The notes under the pieces were generated by a model. It saw nothing but the letters and a program-made list of their open reading frames with translations. It made no database searches and was not told the origin of the DNA. The translations under genes and the position numbers were made by a program. Below, piece by piece: positions 6,669 to 19,900 of a stretch of 64,000 nucleotides of DNA; position 1 is the stretch's first letter; each line of letters begins with the position of its first letter. The DNA comes from Dictyoglomus sp. Its GTDB lineage: Bacteria; Dictyoglomota; Dictyoglomia; Dictyoglomales; Dictyoglomaceae. The stretch spans positions 31,406 to 95,405 of the forward strand of contig JANXBZ010000009.1 in the NCBI GenBank assembly GCA_025060475.1, written 5' to 3'.

Positions 6669-7394
6669 ATGCTTTCTCTTAAAGGAAAGATAGCATTAAT
6701 TACTGGTGCCAGTAGAGGAATAGGAAGGGCTATTTCAAAGGCATTAGCCCAAGAAGGAGTAAATCTTGCTATCAATAGTAGAGCAGAAGAAGGATTACTT
6801 ATTCTAAAAAATGAATTAAAGGATTTTGGAATAGATATTCTTCTTTGTCCTTTTGATCTAAAGGATCCAAAAACCCCAAAATTAATTATTGAAAAAGTAA
6901 TTGAGTATTTTGGAAAATTAGATATCCTTATTAACAATGCAGGAATTGCTTTAGCAAAACCAATAATAGAAACCAAGGAAGAAGAATGGGATGAAATTAT
7001 GGCGGTTAATGCTAAAGCACCCTTCTTTTTATGTAAATATGCAATCCCTTATCTTAAAAAATCCGATATACCAACGATAATAAACATATCATCTGTTGTG
7101 GGTACAAAGGGATATATTAATCAAGGAGCTTATACTGCTTCAAAACATGCCTTAATGGGATTTACAAAGGTTTTAGCTCAAGAAGTCCATGATGATGGAA
7201 TAAGAGTTCATGTTATAGCACCTGGTGGTGTTGCAACAGATCTTGTAACAATTATGAGACCTGACATAGATCCTGAAACCTTGATAAAGCCTGAGGAAAT
7301 TGCTGAAATTATAATATTTCTTTTAAAATTCCGAGGTAATGCTGTTATTGATGAGATAAATGTCAGAAGAGAGAAGAATCCTCCTTGGAGATAA
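6669..7394 (+). CDS. Short-chain dehydrogenase/reductase (FabG-like)
   Basis: TGASRGIGR cofactor motif, NNAG, catalytic S...YTASKHAL (YxxxK). Confidence 0.85.
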   Translation: MLSLKGKIALITGASRGIGRAISKALAQEGVNLAINSRAEEGLLILKNELKDFGIDILLCPFDLKDPKTPKLIIEKVIEYFGKLDILINNAGIALAKPIIETKEEEWDEIMAVNAKAPFFLCKYAIPYLKKSDIPTIINISSVVGTKGYINQGAYTASKHALMGFTKVLAQEVHDDGIRVHVIAPGGVATDLVTIMRPDIDPETLIKPEEIAEIIIFLLKFRGNAVIDEINVRREKNPPWR

Positions 7395-7461
7395 TTGAAT
7401 CTTTTAAAACCCTTTTTTATTCTTTTTTTATCCGCTCCTTTTTACAACTAAGATTTTTCAT

Positions 7462-10858: not shown

Positions 10859-11086
10859 TTAGATTCCATAGAGGCTTTTTGGATAGATGGAAGTGCTTCC
10901 TTCTTTCTTAATGAAGGAGTTTGGCACTGGCTTCCCTTTCCCATAACCTCTTTCACCAACTAAAGCATGAACCTCTCCTGCTCTTAATTCAAATTTCGCT
11001 CCTCTTAAGGCATGGACACCGGGAAAACTTTTCTCGATTCCCTCCATTACAATCAAAAACTCTCTGTCTATATTTCCACCTCCCAA
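10859..11086 (-). pseudogene. Remnant of a sugar ABC transporter ATPase (RbsA/MglA-like N-terminus only)
   Basis: [35 protein letters not shown] matches the N-terminus of sugar-import ATPases. The Walker A region is then replaced by out-of-frame text (RGYGKGKP...) and the gene ends after 75 codons. Confidence 0.65.
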
Positions 11087-11095
11087 TAAGTCCCC

Positions 11096-12720
11096 TTATA
11101 TTTTTTTATAAATAGGTCCAAGGGTTTTACAGGCTCTAAAATCTGCTCCTTCCAGATCTTCAGTTCCAAACATACTCCAGGCGCTAGGTCTAAATATTCT
11201 TTCCTCTTCTACATTGTGCATGGAAATGGGTATTCTTAATATGGATGCTAAGGTTATAAATAAATCTCCTACATGTCCATAGGTTATGGCACAATGATTA
11301 GCTCCCCAGTTCTCCATTACGGAATAAACATTCCTAAAGGCACCTTTTCCTGTAAGTTTTGGGACAAACCAAGTGGTGGGCCAAGTGGGGTTAGTCCTTC
11401 TATCGAGAATTTCATGCACTTCTTTAGGCAGATCCACAGTGTATCCCTCTGCGATTTGTAAAACGGGACCTAATCCCTTTACAATATTTAATCTTGAGAT
11501 TGTTACAGGCATTCCTCCTCTCGTTAGAAACTTTGTAGAGAATCCACCACCTCTAAAATAGCCTAAATCCGCATAGCAAAATCTTGTTGCATTGAGGCAT
11601 CTTATTACTTCATCCTCTGTAATCTCCCAGAAAGGCTTAATAGCAGGTTTTCCATCAATCTCTTGTTCTCCTGTCCCATCAAGGGCTGCAGGACCTGAAT
11701 TTATTAAATGAATTACTCCATCTTGAGCAAGACCTTCTGGTTTCCAGCCTGAAACTCTTTGAATTGCAGAAGGACTCCAATAGGTTCTAACATCTGCAAA
11801 AATCTGTGCAGTATTTGTTAGAAGATGTCCAAAGAGCATACATACACCATTTAAACTATCATTTTCTGTAGCCAAAATATAAGGTTGTCTTAGGCCGTTC
11901 CAATCAAAGGAAGAATTTAATATGGCTTCCATGAAATCTCCATTAGGGAAATAATCGGTCCATTGGCGCTGTCCCTGGAATCCAGCAACTATTGCATTAT
12001 GTCCCAAACTTTCCTCAGGGTAGCCTATTTCTTCAAGTTTCTTGTTTCCCACCATTAAATCCCTTGTTATCAAAGCCATCTTAACCACAAATTCCCATAC
12101 TTCATTTTTCTTCTTCTCATCTACTCTTTTTTCAGGTGGATTAGGATCTTCTCCTTCTTTACAATAAGTTTTCACCCAAGTTAAGGCCTTTCTAAATTCC
12201 TCTTGGTCATAGATCTTCTCTTCAATACGCCTTATTATTTCTGTCATATCCACATATTCTACTCTCATTCCTAAGTAATCCTCAAAAAAGTCAGGATCCA
12301 CTATAGATCCCGCTATTCCCATGGAGACACTACCAATAGCAAGATAGGACTTGTTTTTCATTATGGAAACTGCTAATCCACTTCTTACAAACCTCAATAT
12401 TTTTTCTTGAACATCAGGGGGAATAGAAAAATCATCCTTATCTTGTACATCCTTCCCATATATTTTAAAAACGGGTAAACCTTTCTGATTATGAGCTGCA
12501 GAAACGGCAGCAAGATAAACTGCACCAGGTCTTTCTGTTCCATTAAATCCCCATACTGCCTTTGGTATATCCAAGGTCATATCCATAGTTTCGGAGCCAT
12601 AGCACCAACAAGGAGTCACAGTAAGGGATACTCCAAAAAAGATTTTTCTAATCTCATGGTTTGTTCTTCAAGGGATTCTCTCATTCCTCCATATCTTCCA
12701 TCAATGGTAGGACGTATCAT
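11096..12720 (-). pseudogene. fucI: L-fucose isomerase, disrupted (N-terminal internal deletion plus frameshift)
   Basis: The 507-aa frame is collinear with E. coli FucI from [10 protein letters not shown]...[15 protein letters not shown] through [25 protein letters not shown] and NWGANH to the C-terminus. It begins at an internal GTG. The true N-terminus ([25 protein letters not shown] 12720) is in another frame and hits a stop. About 45 codons between EEQTM and VTPCWC are missing. Confidence 0.8.
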
Positions 12721-12729
12721 ATATCTTAT

Positions 12730-13246
12730 CCTTATTCTCGATTCTTCTTATTAATAGTTCTTTCGCAAGAACTCCCATGGTATATGCAGGCTGTTTAACC
12801 ACTGTAAGAAAAGGAAACAAGGGATATATCTTCAGGAATAGAAAGGCCCATTTCTCTAATTGCAAGAATGGCTCCTATGGCCATAAGATTATTTCCTCCA
12901 AAGATTGCGTGGGAGGATATTTCATGTTAAGAAGTTCCTTGGTTAATCTATATCCGTCCTCCTTCAACCCTATCTACAGCAGTGGATATGGATTTACTTC
13001 CAACAATCAAAGGAATATTTTTCATAAAAAGGGATTTTAACGGAGCTTTCTTTTCTGAGGTAGAAGTAAAAATTACTCCATCTCTAGATTTTCAATTGCA
13101 GTGTCTTCAACTCCTCTAGTTGCAGTTTTCTTTAGAGTCAAGCTTCGGGCTATAGAATTTGGAACATAACCTATCCCATTTATAACCCGAGAGACTGTCA
13201 TTATGGAAACACCAGCTTTTCTGGCAACATCTTTAATAGTAACCAT
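12730..13246 (-). pseudogene. LacI-family regulator, heavily decayed
   Basis: Intact [39 protein letters not shown] from ATG 13246, then a stop. Downstream pieces sit in different frames ([32 protein letters not shown]). The whole gene is compressed to about 515 bp versus about 1 kb for an intact LacI. Confidence 0.75.
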
Positions 13247-14230: not shown

Positions 14231-14355
14231 ATTTAAAAATTTTTTTACTTTTGTAACTTTTATTATTTTGAAACAATTTAAAAGTATAAGTAAATTGTAT
14301 TAAAATAAGCTTGAAATATTATTTAAGAACTTCTTAAATTTAAGATTGGTAAAGT

Positions 14356-15282
14356 TTAAATAAATCTTCTATATGCAGTCCATTTTATATACTTTTTGCA
14401 AATAATGTATAAAATACAATTATTACAATTTGGTTCTATATCTAAGCAGTATCCATTGGAATATATAAAAAACGCTCCATTATCAACATAAAAAGGGATT
14501 TTTTTATATATAAAAACAAGATTTTCAATTTTACTCCTCATTTTTGAAGCTTCTATTATATATGGTCTTTTACTTTCATAAAATACTTCATCTAATAAAC
14601 CAGTTCTACAAAATATTTTCCCCACATGACCATCTACAATCATAAAACTATCATAAAGATTAATTTGAGATATATTCCAAATATTTTTACATAAAAATAA
14701 AATCCAATTTATATACATTCTGCATGCCTTAGGATCATTTCCTACCCATCCTATACTTAGAATTTCATGCTTTTTTAATTTATCAAAAAGCTTTCGGGGA
14801 CTTTTGTTTATTAATTCATTAATCATAAAATCCTTAAAAGTTATATTATTTTTCTCTAACCATTTTATAAATCCTTCATATGCTTTAAATCTATAAGTAA
14901 AAAGAGAGATAGGCTTAATACCACCTAAGAAGCCCACTCTGTATAACTTCGATCCTCTTTCCCCACATATTTTTTTAAAAACCTTAACTATATCTAATTC
15001 AGATATTACATATGGTTTAAAGAGAAGTAAGTCATTGAATTCTTTATACAATTCAGTAATCAAAGCTCTTACAATATCTATTTGGGCTTGTTGATTTATT
15101 AAAACTCTTAATAAAAGATATCTTAATGTTTTCTCTTTGTCATTTATAATTTTATCATTGTCTAATACTGCTAAATGTTTTTTCCAATAAATCAACCATT
15201 GATTTTCTCCATATTCTTCCAATAAATCAAGAATTTTTAAAATATCCTCATCTGATAATTTTTTTTGTTTTTCCTTTGCCAT
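14356..15282 (-). CDS. Endonuclease III-like HhH-GPD superfamily protein with a C-terminal [4Fe-4S] cluster loop, MTase-linked
   Basis: LLLRVLINQQAQ (Nth-like helix). HhH-like ILSIGWVGNDPKACRMY with Lys at the Nth Schiff-base position. VDGHVGKIFCRTGL (cf. VDTHIFRV..R.G, catalytic Asp). CLDIEPNCNNCILYIIC = C-x6-C-x2-C-x5-C. Overlaps the upstream MTase gene by 35 nt. Confidence 0.7.
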   Translation of the reverse strand: MAKEKQKKLSDEDILKILDLLEEYGENQWLIYWKKHLAVLDNDKIINDKEKTLRYLLLRVLINQQAQIDIVRALITELYKEFNDLLLFKPYVISELDIVKVFKKICGERGSKLYRVGFLGGIKPISLFTYRFKAYEGFIKWLEKNNITFKDFMINELINKSPRKLFDKLKKHEILSIGWVGNDPKACRMYINWILFLCKNIWNISQINLYDSFMIVDGHVGKIFCRTGLLDEVFYESKRPYIIEASKMRSKIENLVFIYKKIPFYVDNGAFFIYSNGYCLDIEPNCNNCILYIICKKYIKWTAYRRFI

Positions 15283-16180
15283 TATTTTTTAATAATTTAT
15301 TAACCTTATTAGAAAGCCAACTTCTTAATTGCTTGGCATCTTCTCTAATTATTATTTCAATCTCATAATTCTTTTCGAATAAACAATTTTTATTAATTCC
15401 AAGCTTTTCTTTTACAATATTTACAAGTTCTTTATCAATATCATATCCCACACTATTTCTACCTAACATTAATGATATCTTGTTGGTTGTTCCCGATCCC
15501 ATAAAGGGATCTAACACAGTTTCTCCAACATATGAAAAAAGTTTAATTAATCTATAAGGGAGTTCTTCTGGAAATGCAGCTATACCTTCTTCAAGCCGAT
15601 TATTTGTAGGTAAAACATTTGTGATATTCCACACATTTAAATACCACTTATTTTCAAGATATTCTTTCACATCAATTTTAGATGCTTCTTTAATAATTTC
15701 TGGAATAGAACTATAATTAAACTTTTTTCCCTTTTGAAATATTAAAATACTTTCCTGAAGATTATCTGGATAAAAATACATGGGATATGGATGTTGTAAG
15801 AGAACTCCACTTCTTCTACTTATTCTGACATAACCCTCTGGTTTGAGCCATATAATTTTATCTCTATAGATAAATCCTTCTTCCAAAAAAATTTGTGTTA
15901 AGTCCGAAACTACAGGATATTTTTCACTATTTATTAAAATATCATCACAAACTAAACATACAATCCTTCCATTAATTAATACTCTCTTTATTTCTTTTAC
16001 GACCTTTTTCATTTTATGTAAATATTCATCATAACTTGAAAAAAGATCAGGATAATCAAAAGGAGCATTATAATAAGGAGGACTAGTTACGACTAAGTGA
16101 ATACTTTCATCCTTTAATTCATACATATTCTCTGCATCACCAAATATTAATAGATGATGAGTTCTATGATTACTAAACAT
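15248..16180 (-). CDS. Beta-class amino DNA methyltransferase (N4-cytosine or N6-adenine)
   Basis: Motif IV VVTSPPYYNAPFDY near the N-terminus and motif I VLDPFMGSGTT near residue 228. The IV-then-I order is beta class (DNA methylase N-4/N-6 family). Confidence 0.85.
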   Translation of the reverse strand: MFSNHRTHHLLIFGDAENMYELKDESIHLVVTSPPYYNAPFDYPDLFSSYDEYLHKMKKVVKEIKRVLINGRIVCLVCDDILINSEKYPVVSDLTQIFLEEGFIYRDKIIWLKPEGYVRISRRSGVLLQHPYPMYFYPDNLQESILIFQKGKKFNYSSIPEIIKEASKIDVKEYLENKWYLNVWNITNVLPTNNRLEEGIAAFPEELPYRLIKLFSYVGETVLDPFMGSGTTNKISLMLGRNSVGYDIDKELVNIVKEKLGINKNCLFEKNYEIEIIIREDAKQLRSWLSNKVNKLLKNNGKGKTKKIIR

Positions 16181-16421
16181 AAATATATTTTCTCCTAAAA
16201 TTTTTATATATCTGATACAATATTATATCACAATGATAACCTTGCATTAATTTATAATATTCTTTCTTAGCTGTAATAAATGTTTATCAAAGGAATATCC
16301 ATATTAGAGAAAATATTTAAAGATAATAAAATATCGCAACATTATAGATGGCACTTGATATGGACATAGGTGCCAATTTTAAGAAATATAGATAAATTCC
16401 TACATAAGTATCACAGGAAAC

Positions 16422-16655
16422 TCAAGAATATGAGGATGAACTAAGAAATTTTCCATTCATGCCAATCCCAAAGCTTGGTCTTGCTAAATTCCATGTATCT
16501 TGCCATCTTTGAGCTTTCTCTAAGAATTCTTCCTTTCCTAAGCAAAATTCCTCCCCATTATCTATCCTTATCTCTATTTTATGTCTGATATTATAAGTTC
16601 TAAACCATAGAATGTGATATAAATCTTGTTCTTTTTTCACATCATAATATTCCAT
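16422..16655 (-). mobile_element. Remnant of an rve-type DDE transposase/integrase (C-terminal fragment)
   Basis: IEIRIDNGEEF resembles the DNGxEF block carrying the third catalytic acid. WQDTWNLARPSFGIGMNGKF resembles the W..YN..RPH..LGG.TP tail. Only 77 codons, no N-terminal part and no inverted repeats seen. Confidence 0.4.
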
Positions 16656-16806
16656 TAAAAAGAGGAAGGGAATTTTTATCCAAGAGATTGTTTAGTATAA
16701 AGCTGATTTCCAGTTATTTCTTTTCAGAATAGTTTTGATAGTATTTTTAGAGAGATAGGAGGAGTTTAATTAAGAAAGGAAAGGTTCAATTACTTAATTA
16801 TATCAA

Positions 16807-16840
16807 GGATTGAGAGGGCAGCCTCAATCCTTTCTATTTT
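16807..16840 (+). terminator. Orphan terminator-like hairpin GGATTGAG-(8 nt)-CTCAATCC followed by TTTCTATTTT
   Basis: 8-bp perfect stem seen directly, with a T-rich tail. No intact + strand gene lies upstream, so it is probably a relic. Confidence 0.35.
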
Positions 16841-16993
16841 CTTTCCCTCTTCTTTCTCTCTTCCTTCTCTATTCCCTCTACTATTACTATACTGGTACCT
16901 ATCTACTAATCAGCTTAGAATAAATTGACAAGTCTTTAATTATTACCTAAACTAAGTTTTAGTATGAAACTTATTCCTGGATAGGAGGAAAGA

Positions 16994-19900
16994 ATGAATC
17001 GCCAAGTAGATTACAGATTTGATCCCGAAAAAGATTTAACTTTTATTATTTACAATTACAACTATGCCTTTCCTTTTTCAAGTTTTCTCCCAGGAATTGC
17101 TGGCATTTTAGGGATACCAATGTGGTGCTTTTACGTGAATAGGGGACAATGTATTGCAAGTTTTGGATTTGAAACTAAAGATGGAGCAATTTTAGAATTT
17201 CATCCTGCTAATAAAGCCTATAGACTTACACCCATATATGGTTTTCGAACCTTTATAAAAATAGAAGATATTTTATATGAGCCCTTTTCGGAAAGATTTA
17301 AAAACTTTGAAATTGAAAATAAGATGAGTATTACCCCATATGATCTAACTATATATGAAATAAATAAAAATTTAAATCTATCTTGCGAAGTAAACTATTT
17401 CACTTTACCCTCTGAACCTGTAGGAGCTTTAATACGTATTTTTAATATCAGAAATCTTAGTAAAGAAAAAATAAAGCTTAAGATCATAGATGGACTTCCT
17501 CAGTTTCTACCCTATGGTTTAACCAATGAAGTTATGAAAAATATGTCTCGAACAATAGAAGCCTGGTATCGAATAGATAATTTAGAAGAAAACCTTCCTT
17601 ATTATAGACTTTCTACATCCTTTCAAGATGTAGCAGAAGTAAAACCTATAGAAGAGGGACATTTTTACTTTGCTTTTTCTGAAGAAAAAAATCTTCTTCC
17701 CGTAGTTATTGATCCTGATATAATATTTTTCCCTTCGAGCGATTTTAGCTATCCTTGGAATTTTTCAAAAAAGGATTTTGAGTTGCCTAAGCCAGTATAT
17801 TATGGAAACCGAACTCCCTCTGCTTTTTCTTATATATCCTTCGACTTAGATCCTTTTGAGGAAAGAGCAATAATTTCCTTTTTTGGAAGGGCCAATTCCC
17901 TTTCTCAATTAAAGGAGCTTGTTAAAAAATATACTAATATCGATTTTGTTAAGGCTAAAGCAGAAGAGAATAAATTAATTATTAGAGAAATTACAGATAA
18001 GGCTTTTGTTTATACTTCTGTGAAAGAATTTAATTCATATGTGAGACAAAGTTTTTTAGATAATGTATTAAGAGGAGGACTCCCCGTTTCCATTGAATAT
18101 GAAAATAAAAAGGATGTTATTTATCTCTTTTCAAGAAAACATGGCGATTTAGAGCGAGATTATAACTTCTTTAGACTTGAAGCAAATTATTTTTCTCAAG
18201 GAAATGCTAATTTTAGAGATATAAATCAAAACAGAAGAAATGATATATACTTTAATCCTAATGTAGGACATTTTAACATTTTATACTTTATGAATTTAAT
18301 TCAGCTTGATGGATATAATCCTCTCCTAATTAAAGGGGTAAAGTATATTTTTGAGAAAGAGAAAGAAAAGCTATCCCAATGGGTGGATGAAGATGTAAAA
18401 AGAGAACTAGAAAAAGTAATATATAAACCTTATATTCCTTATGATGTAATAAAAATCTTAGAAAAAAATAACTTTAAACTCAAAAAAGGAGATATAATTG
18501 AGTTTATATCCTTTCTACTTGTAAACAGTAAGAAAACCGAAGATGCAGAATTTGGAGAAGGATATTGGATAGATCACTGGTTTTACAATCTAGATCTTAT
18601 AGAAAGCTTTGAATCTATATTTCCTGATAAAATGGAGGATTTATTACTAAACATAAAAGAATTTACATACTATGACAACTATGAAAGGGTACTTCCCAGA
18701 GAGGAGAGATATATATTAACGGAAAAAGGAGTAAGACAGTATAGAGCTTTATTTAAAGATGAAGAGAAGTTAAGACTTATAAATTCAAGAAATGTAGAAC
18801 CTTATAAAGTAAGAAAAGATAATGGACGAGGAGAAATATACTATACTAATTTGTTTTCAAAACTTATAACCCTTGTTGCAATAAAATACTCAACTTTAGA
18901 TCCAGATAATATTGGCATTGAAATGGAAGCAGGAAGACCAGGCTGGAATGATGCTCTAAATGGGCTTCCAGGGATATTTGGATCATCAGTAAATGAAACC
19001 TTTGAATTAAAAAGATTAATTCTTATGATTAAAAAATGGGTTGAGAAATATAATTTAGAAGAAAAGGAAATAAACTTGCCTATTGAGGTATATTCTTTAC
19101 TAAATTCTCTTATGGAGCTTACAATTAAAAATCTTGATGAAAAGATTTCTAATTTTGAATTTTGGGACAAAATCTCAAAGGAAAGGGAGATTTATAGGGA
19201 AAAAATAAGATTTGGAATAGAAGGAAAAGAAATTTCAATAAAAATATCAGATCTTCTAAAGTACCTAAATCTATTCTTAGAAAAAATTGAAAGGGGACTA
19301 AAACAAGCATTCAATCCACAAAAGGGAATTTACTATTCTTATTTTTATTATGAACTTATTGATTATGAAATAATAGAAAAAGATGGAAAACTTGTTATAA
19401 AACCTAAGAAATTTGAAAGAAAAAATCTACCTTCTTTTCTTGAGTCCCAAGTACATTTCCTAAAATCAGAAGAAGATATACAAAAGAAGATTGAGATTAT
19501 AGAAAATGTGAAAAAAAGTGACATATACGATAAAAAATTAAAAATGTATAAGCTGAACGAACCCCTTGAGAATACCTCTTTTGAGATTGGAAGAGTGAGA
19601 GCTTTTCTTCCAGGATGGCTTGAAAACGAAAGCATATTTCTTCATATGGAATATAAATATCTTCTTGAAATGTTAAAAACAGATCCAGGATATTTCTTTT
19701 ATGATATGATGACCTGTCTTGTTCCCTTTATGGATCCTAAAATATATAAAAGAAGCATCTTTGAAAATGTATCCTTTATAGTAAGTAGTGCAAATCCTGA
19801 TCCTAGCATTCATGGGGCTGGATTTTCTGCAAGACTTTCAGGAAGCACAGCAGAACTCTATAATATTCTTCTTCTAATTTCCCTTGGGAAAAATCCCTTT

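Follow-up and report, generated by a model that had tools for sequence, protein, structure and literature searches.

Restriction by base excision is described for enzymes of the PabI type: as set out in PMC5388411, PMC7806768 and PMC10273834, the restriction enzyme of a Type II system excises an unmethylated base within its recognition site. The abasic site is then opened by an intrinsic apurinic/apyrimidinic (AP) lyase activity, by other AP endonucleases or by heat, alternatives that are under debate for PabI (PMC5388411). Here we describe a two-gene cassette in a 64,000-nucleotide (nt) stretch of Dictyoglomus sp. contig JANXBZ010000009.1 (the window; coordinates are positions in it unless a locus is named, and its cassette features all lie on the minus strand). 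The first gene, M (15248..16180), encodes a 310-residue beta-class DNA amino-methyltransferase, as judged from Pfam and PADLOC, which is probably N4-cytosine specific. The second, R (14356..15282), encodes a 308-residue protein with an HhH-GPD fold, predicted from AlphaFold2, Foldseek and hhalign, and an iron-sulfur (Fe-S) loop; it is a candidate restriction glycosylase/AP-lyase. We assign a probability of about 0.6 to the reading that the pair constitutes a Type II-like restriction-modification (R-M) system, in which R is a methylation-blocked glycosylase/AP-lyase built on the endonuclease III (EndoIII) fold.

In proposed working principle, the cassette is closest to the R.PabI/R.HpyAXII/R.CcoLI (HALFPIPE) systems. 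Both kinds of system have two genes, one of which encodes an amino-methyltransferase, both are mobile, and both count thermophiles among their hosts. The restriction proteins themselves are unrelated in fold, with PabI forming a beta-sheet half-pipe homodimer without a metal cluster, whereas R is predicted to be an all-helical HhH-GPD protein with an Fe-S loop. No PabI-family chain is among the structural or sequence matches listed for R. Families of the HhH, endonuclease III or Fe-S kind go unmentioned in a 2023 review on restriction enzymes that excise bases, and full-text literature searches, which did not cover REBASE, returned no report of an HhH-GPD restriction enzyme.

The structural relatives of R are found among repair enzymes. 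Nth, MutY, Mig.MthI and the EndoIII enzymes of D. radiodurans share with R the fold, the LL..L..QQA helix, the VDxH motif with its Asp, and the Cx6Cx2Cx5C loop. R exceeds Nth in length by about 100 residues and has an extended N-terminus as well as insertions, and the spacing between the Lys and Asp is 32 residues instead of 18. Nth is encoded by a housekeeping repair gene, whereas the gene for R, carried on a mobile cassette, always adjoins that of a methyltransferase. Mig.MthI, from the MthTI system of plasmid pFV1, resembles R in being an HhH-GPD/Fe-S glycosylase (putatively so in R) that occurs with an R-M system in a thermophile. The R-M system that Mig accompanies is a complete one for 5-methylcytosine, with an endonuclease of its own, and Mig repairs the T:G mismatches arising from deamination of 5-methylcytosine. 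R, unlike Mig.MthI, has an amino-methyltransferase as its partner and no further nuclease gene in its setting.

Two further proteins invite comparison. AGOG has an enlarged, non-canonical HhH, with catalytic residues Lys140 and Asp172 located 32 residues apart (PMC3397491). The same spacing separates Lys185 and Asp217 in R, and AGOG is among the matches of both structural models described below, with no significant sequence similarity found between AGOG and R. AGOG acts in repair and is specific for damage; it is not known to carry an Fe-S loop or to be linked to a methyltransferase. In the END nucleases, an inactivated EndoIII domain that senses hypermodified bases is fused to a phospholipase D (PLD) nuclease (2025 preprint, PMC12191111). 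END proteins and, as we propose, R both employ an EndoIII/Ogg-fold module in defence. The END module has lost its catalytic residues and has no associated methyltransferase, whereas R is a stand-alone protein that has kept the Asp, the Lys and the Fe-S loop and is strictly methyltransferase-linked.

The M protein matches Pfam N6_N4_Mtase (2.1e-46) and PADLOC MTase_II (PDLC03353, 4.5e-77), and its nearest solved structure is TTHA0409 (2zie, 2.9e-22). Translation places motif IV, TSPPY, at 16073..16087 and motif I, FMGSGTT, which binds S-adenosylmethionine, at 15485..15505. A preliminary description of the stretch, made from the sequence alone, had noted a beta-class N4-cytosine/N6-adenine methyltransferase with SPPY followed by FMGSGTT, and the family matches and the translation bear this out. 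Both the catalytic and the S-adenosylmethionine motifs are intact, as expected for the methyltransferase of a Type II R-M system. TSPPY is unchanged in all 96 methyltransferase matches (96/96) of the related loci. SPPY is found in most bacterial N4-cytosine methyltransferases and DPPY in N6-adenine enzymes (PMC8885841). Because motif IV is TSPPY, N4-methylcytosine is the likely product of M. We rejected an assignment of the recognition site by homology: the best plasmid-borne relatives of M are only 31-36% identical, including one on the 11-kb Methanothermobacter plasmid NC_001337, and TTHA0409 is uncharacterised. The Methanothermobacter plasmid, which we take to be pFZ1, presumably encodes M.MthZI. 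All of these proteins are too distant for a site to be transferred.

R matched no Pfam, NCBIfam or PADLOC family at threshold. An identical 308-residue protein is on record as a hypothetical protein from a Dictyoglomus sp. metagenome-assembled genome (MAG), and members of the R family are annotated in databases as ‘hypothetical protein’ and occasionally as ‘endonuclease III’. A search of the PDB with the single sequence returned nothing relevant, and the family profile gave weak matches confined to the Fe-S region (best match 2abk, E 0.16). An AlphaFold2 model of R, built on 26 homologues, has a predicted local distance difference test score (pLDDT) of 88.8 and a predicted template-modelling (TM) score (pTM) of 0.89, and consists of about 15 helices and two short strands. 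The best 19 Foldseek matches of this model in the PDB all fall within the HhH-GPD superfamily, with probabilities of 0.41-1.00 (at least 0.92 in the top 16) and target-normalised TM-scores of 0.29-0.60. They include D. radiodurans EndoIII-1 and EndoIII-3, 1kea (Mig.MthI), MUTYH, MutY, AGOG, Ogg and DUF2419. An independent model of a sister subfamily, introduced below, again matched Ogg, MUTYH and AGOG. Finally, we used hhalign to align the profile of the R superfamily with a small Nth profile, in which the E. coli Nth sequence is identical to 2abk; residues 56-298 aligned with a probability of 89% and an E-value of 2.4e-6. The model with its Foldseek matches, the sister model and the profile alignment agree with the end-to-end HhH-GPD reading of the preliminary description, and R is predicted to adopt the two-domain, all-helical HhH-GPD fold.

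Within this superfamily, R stands apart. When R was considered as an orthologue of Nth, there was no NCBIfam match and no significant similarity to solved Nth. An exhaustive profile search against 1.84 billion representative proteins yielded 70 matches, mostly family members and gene fragments, with few if any canonical Nth or MutY proteins among them. The R family is thus small and isolated.

Candidate functional residues are conserved across three subfamilies that are about 30% identical or less. The LLLRVLINQQAQ helix (residues 56-67, 15082..15117) aligns with residues 32-43 of Nth (LLIAVLLSAQAT), and its Gln64 is kept in 33 of 34 sequences. Asp217, within VDGHVGKIFCRTGL (residues 216-229, 14596..14637), falls in the column of the catalytic Asp138 of Nth and is likewise conserved in 33 of 34; Arg226 is invariant (34/34). 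The iron-sulfur loop CLDIEPNCNNCILYIIC (residues 279-295, 14398..14448) has the exact Cx6Cx2Cx5C spacing, and its residues Cys279, Cys286, Cys289 and Cys295, invariant in all 34 sequences, line up with the Nth loop in the alignment. From this loop we predict that R carries a [4Fe-4S] cluster. The segment GWVGNDPK (residues 178-185, 14728..14751) forms a non-canonical hairpin that contains Asp183 and ends in Lys185, which is invariant in 34/34 sequences and, in the AlphaFold2 model, is the first residue of the helix that follows the hairpin (residues 185-201). With its invariance, its place in the model and its spacing to Asp217, Lys185 is the likely candidate for the Schiff-base nucleophile. 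The motifs quoted for this protein in the preliminary description were all found in its sequence, including the Asp position and the terminal Cys loop.

We collected 121 related loci, 34 from a scan of species-representative genomes, 80 from a metagenome scan and the remainder from context look-ups. Every full-length R homologue with upstream DNA has an amino-methyltransferase gene immediately adjacent. Wherever the contig reaches far enough, an orthologue of M (55-81% identity) lies directly upstream on the same strand, divergent in L019 and L099. R sequences that have upstream DNA without an orthologous M are the fragments L029, L032 and L112, and L118, where the R protein is 43% identical and is located behind a different TSPPY methyltransferase (31% identity). 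In the window, the two genes share 35 nt (15248..15282, ATGGCAAAGGAAAAACAAAAAAAATTATCAGATGA), with the start codon of R inside the 3' end of M, in agreement with the two overlapping minus-strand reading frames noted before; of 89 related loci, 82 have an M/R overlap, which measures 14-47 nt. An AGGAG Shine-Dalgarno-like element, read from the sequence, lies at 16192..16196, 11 nt ahead of the start codon of M, and no comparable purine run precedes the ATG of R.

Clustering of all open reading frames (ORFs) from 34 loci identified M and R as the only shared genes and did not reveal a third partner, consistent with the earlier view of the 308-residue protein as the sole partner of the methyltransferase. 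The flanking genes are unrelated housekeeping genes, among them those for polyprenyl synthase/DXS, CNNM, SDR/CoA-transferase, TPR/MutS, P-type ATPase/MgtC and ribonucleotide reductase/MetRS. The cassettes form 82 lineages at 95% nucleotide identity. They occur in at least 15 bacterial and archaeal phyla, at 50-65% identity. Bacterial hosts include Thermodesulfobacteriota, Kryptonia, Zixibacteria, Sumerlaeota, Patescibacteria, Nitrospirae, WOR-3, Clostridia and Dehalococcoidales, and archaeal hosts include Thermoproteota, Archaeoglobales, Thermoplasmata, Methanobacteriota and ANME-1; for many hosts, the sample was hydrothermal or taken from a hot spring, or the lineage is thermophilic. M and R thus constitute a self-contained, horizontally mobile two-gene cassette. 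No viral carriage was found in IMG/VR, and a structural comparison gave no meaningful viral match. One MAG, binchicken_co193_35, has two cassettes on different contigs (L009 and L023), one with an intact and the other with a frameshifted R gene; a gene with an Mrr_N domain is located just downstream of the copy with the intact R.

The two genes decay unequally. We tallied lesions in loci where both genes could be judged, after removal of false stops. In several loci, what had looked like stops in M were not breaks but the natural ends of the gene or codons upstream, and the ‘six stops’ of L119 are in fact one 1-nt deletion read in the wrong frame. Both genes are intact in about 65 loci, R is broken next to an intact M in 22, M is broken next to an intact R in a single locus (L012), and both are broken in two (L002 and L028). 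Counted by lineage, roughly 17 have a broken R with an intact M and one shows the reverse (binomial estimate about 1e-4). R-inactivating lesions occur in about 27 of the 82 lineages, often beside intact alleles of the same lineage, and R without a methyltransferase is found only as fragments. Assembly error cannot explain the asymmetry, because M and R are equal in length and composition and lie on the same contigs.

Individual alleles illustrate how R is lost. At one chromosomal site, R is intact in L036-L038 and carries a +1 slip in an A7 run in L035. Trp179 and position 158 have each been hit repeatedly by nonsense mutations. In the Freyarchaeota loci L039-L041, the M protein is identical, with 8 synonymous differences between the genes, and all three R alleles carry C289F, which replaces the third Fe-S cysteine; in addition, L039 has D183N, L040 and L041 have Q53*, L040 has D267Y and L041 has a 13-bp insertion. 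D183N, at an otherwise invariant residue, arose independently in the full-length R of L017 (Saccharibacteria), and the full-length R of L120 carries D217N. Although the numbers are small, hits to active-site and Fe-S residues in full-length R proteins look more like disarming than neutral drift.

Distant full-length profile matches define two sister subfamilies, which are about 30% identical or less to the family of the window; for one of them, comparison of its profile with that of the window family gave an E-value of 1.7e-41. All five distant relatives examined adjoin N6_N4 methyltransferases (5/5), in gene orders other than that of the window. Together with the 121 loci, they make linkage to a methyltransferase, which the preliminary description had offered as a check, near-absolute. 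In the first order, R is followed by an ORF of 52-75 residues and then M. The small ORF, which is conserved and is a candidate controller with a weak match to ribbon-helix-helix (RHH; CopG) proteins (E 0.03), is located at 5103-5285 in L124, 4945-5172 in L125 and 5014-5172 in L126. The methyltransferase in this order is 63% identical to that of the window, and R just 30%. In the second order (L129, 3501-7468), R precedes an N6_N4 methyltransferase fused to a MerR/helix-turn-helix (HTH) domain and a second N6_N4 methyltransferase, and L129 may be a compound or two-methyltransferase system. In the third, M precedes R with a gap or overlap of 4 nt, and M carries TDPPF, an adenine-type motif. Varied gene order, regulator-like extra genes and methyltransferases of differing base specificity are typical hallmarks of R-M systems. 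Two additional ORFs were seen in these loci. An unannotated 321-residue ORF follows the second methyltransferase of L129. Downstream of the R-M unit of L124, a 203-residue ORF (6792-7403) has weak matches to HhH-GPD (E 0.12) and to the EndoIII Fe-S motif (E 0.22); it is not conserved in L125 or L126 and may be a second glycosylase-like gene.

Of the three explanations in the preliminary description, a methylation-sensitive base-excision restriction enzyme fits these observations best. We hypothesize that M marks a short host sequence, probably as N4-methylcytosine, and that R would scan DNA and, at an unmethylated site, flip out a normal base and excise it by means of Asp217. Methylation of the site would block R. 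The abasic site would be opened, probably through a Schiff base with Lys185 and beta-elimination, or alternatively by a host AP endonuclease or by heat, and attack on both strands of a symmetric site would lead to a double-strand break. As R starts inside M and has no ribosome-binding site of its own, its expression is probably low and dependent on translation of M. There is about an even chance that R represents the first Fe-S, EndoIII-fold class of restriction enzymes, the sixth after PD-(D/E)XK, HNH, GIY-YIG, PLD and half-pipe, which would recognise a specific sequence and excise an undamaged, correctly paired base, provided that neither N4-methylcytosine nor N6-methyladenine marks the site. 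At least three subfamilies, distributed among thermophilic bacteria and archaea, would make up such a class.

Several observations weigh against restriction by R. We know of no HhH-GPD enzyme that excises undamaged, correctly paired bases in a sequence-specific manner. At the level of the fold, Pfam HhH-GPD (PF00730) scored R at 19.2 bits (E 0.0016, residues 199-232), below the gathering score of 26.2, and gave a subthreshold match in just 2 of 26 family members; the Foldseek E-values are modest (0.03 and above) and the TM-scores moderate. Among the checks proposed in the preliminary description, the domain search fell short, and the structural search succeeded in that the top 19 matches are all HhH-GPD proteins. 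The earlier claim of a Lys at the Schiff-base position of Nth was not confirmed: Lys185 is invariant, but Asp183 fills the column of Nth Lys120 in the profile alignment and Lys185 comes two residues later. In the window subfamily, GWVG aligns with GVG of Nth, and the sister subfamilies lack a G-x-G hairpin altogether; AGOG offers a precedent for an HhH that is not canonical. The displacement of Lys185 from the Lys120 column and the missing hairpins of the sisters make lyase chemistry uncertain.

Other points of this kind concern the behaviour of the cassette. Markov-corrected counts of palindromes in the window and the host loci singled out no target: in the 64-kb window, 3 CCGG sites were observed where 22 were expected, and 58 CTAG sites where 140 were expected, and CTAG and GGCC are depleted in nearly all host loci. 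As the depletion is the same whether R is intact or broken, site avoidance does not discriminate. In L012, R retains every invariant residue next to an M with two frameshifts, the reverse of the usual state. The contig has a coverage of about 4x, and each of the frameshifts falls in an A/T run; they may be an artefact, or L012 may stem from a genome that truly has R without M. The loss of R with retention of M is no proof of toxicity, as it fits mere dispensability too, and the cassettes are mostly located outside recognisable defence islands.

The last two observations lend themselves to the strongest rival explanation, in which R is an AlkA/MagIII-like glycosylase that clears aberrant alkylated bases produced by off-target activity of M, so that the cassette would be an orphan methyltransferase with a ‘cleaner’. 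Methyltransferases can create alkylation damage, and C5-methyltransferases are reported to be coupled with alkylation repair. HhH-GPD is the fold of alkylation-repair glycosylases, a repair partner would account for the strict methyltransferase linkage, a non-essential cleaner could often be lost while M stays, and the neighbours are housekeeping genes. We nevertheless consider by-product repair unlikely. It leaves unexplained why the cassette spreads autonomously through at least 15 phyla of both domains. An enzyme acting on lesions needs no regulators, yet the sister loci have an RHH-like ORF and an HTH-fused methyltransferase, as is typical for the control of toxic genes. In addition, the substitutions D183N (twice), C289F, D267Y and D217N strike invariant active-site or Fe-S residues in full-length ORFs.

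An improbable second explanation, and one of those put forward initially, is that R is a deamination or mismatch repair companion analogous to Mig.MthI or Vsr, which would deal with methylated bases that deaminate at high temperature. The thymine glycosylase Mig.MthI (1kea), whose gene accompanies an R-M system, ranks second among the structural matches of R, many of the hosts are from hydrothermal or hot-spring samples or thermophilic lineages, and the arrangement, in which a small gene comes after M and overlaps it, is reminiscent of dcm-vsr. The partners of R weaken this explanation: they are amino-methyltransferases of the SPPY and DPPF types (TSPPY in 96/96, TDPPF in a sister subfamily) and none is a C5-methyltransferase. 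Deamination of N4-methylcytosine gives uracil and that of N6-methyladenine gives hypoxanthine, both of which are handled by general repair enzymes, so a site-specific T:G problem does not arise. Mig and Vsr accompany complete R-M systems, whereas no separate conserved nuclease gene is present here. A single repair specificity would not be expected to track methyltransferases that modify different bases, and the variation of gene orders, extra genes and partners among the sisters is difficult to square with repair that serves a single deamination product.

More doubtful still is a non-catalytic role, in which R would serve as a DNA-binding, specificity or regulatory subunit of M. The precedent is the END sensor domain, since inactive EndoIII domains act as DNA sensors in defence proteins (PMC12191111), and the canonical HhH hairpin is missing in the sister subfamilies. 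END sensors have lost their catalytic residues, whereas the Asp, Lys, Arg and four Cys of R are kept at 30% identity or less; nor is it expected that about a third of lineages would lose a helper when M is under purifying selection. Least probable of all is the initial suggestion that R removes the methylated base, either as an eraser of the mark set by M or as a modification-dependent Type IV-like enzyme, which finds no support: ROS1/DEMETER are HhH-GPD/Fe-S enzymes able to excise a methylated base and ROS1 gives one of the weak sequence matches to the Fe-S region, but destroying the product of its own partner in a coupled operon would be futile or self-toxic, and Type IV enzymes typically have no cognate methyltransferase, whereas here the linkage is near-absolute in three subfamilies.

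The GC content of the cassette is 0.26, compared with 0.31 for the window, which is in the lowest 1.5% of windows of the same size and agrees with the AT-rich patch noted at the outset. The adjacent insertion sequence remnant claimed with it was not recovered: positions 16181-16993 contain no sequence repeated in the window and have no match to a transposase or other Pfam family. Instead, a run of gene remnants is found near the cassette. This run (10859-13246, minus strand) contains an ABC ATPase fragment (10859..11086), a truncated L-fucose isomerase gene (11096..12619) whose product, judged by its Pfam coordinates, is short of about 80 residues at the N-terminus, a weakly matching periplasmic-binding-domain fragment (12701..12865) and a LacI-family HTH fragment (13073..13246). 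It has the look of a locus for sugar utilisation in decay. At 14254-14268 and 17037-17051, 2783 nt apart, the 15-nt sequence TAACTTTTATTATTT forms an exact direct repeat that flanks the cassette together with its 0.8-kb upstream spacer. About 0.08 such repeats are expected by chance, by a rough estimate; the repeat could be an insertion scar, though it is near chance level.

Nothing upstream of M is conserved in the other loci, and we rejected the idea of a conventional nuclease hidden in the 77-residue ORF or in the spacer. An exact-match look-up of the flanking nucleoside hydrolase, aimed at an empty site in another Dictyoglomus, returned only the same arrangement, and a scan for promoters and terminators gave sites no more numerous than in shuffled sequence. 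An A8 run at 15259-15266, inside the overlap of M and R, is a possible phase-variable off switch for R alone, because a one-base slip there would shift the frame of R at about codon 8 and alter only the last few residues of M. The corresponding region in other loci has A7 at most. In L008 (542-4693), a Methanobacteriota MAG, the ribonucleotide reductase gene next to the cassette contains an intein and LAGLIDADG domains.

What is new here is probably not the principle of restriction by base excision, which is known, but its realisation on a new scaffold. Because Pfam, NCBIfam and PADLOC miss R, R-M systems of this kind would be scored as orphan methyltransferases in methylome and defence surveys. 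Base-excision restriction has so far come from one family with a unique fold, PabI, and a second family would mean that it evolved repeatedly. If our reading is correct, R would bring a fold not seen before among restriction enzymes and be the first of them with an Fe-S cluster, and the family may offer thermostable, sequence-specific glycosylases as tools. It would also imply that the HhH-GPD active site can be aimed at normal bases, which bears on how damaged and normal DNA are discriminated, and that a base-excision repair scaffold was turned into a sequence-specific weapon at least once, independently of PabI.

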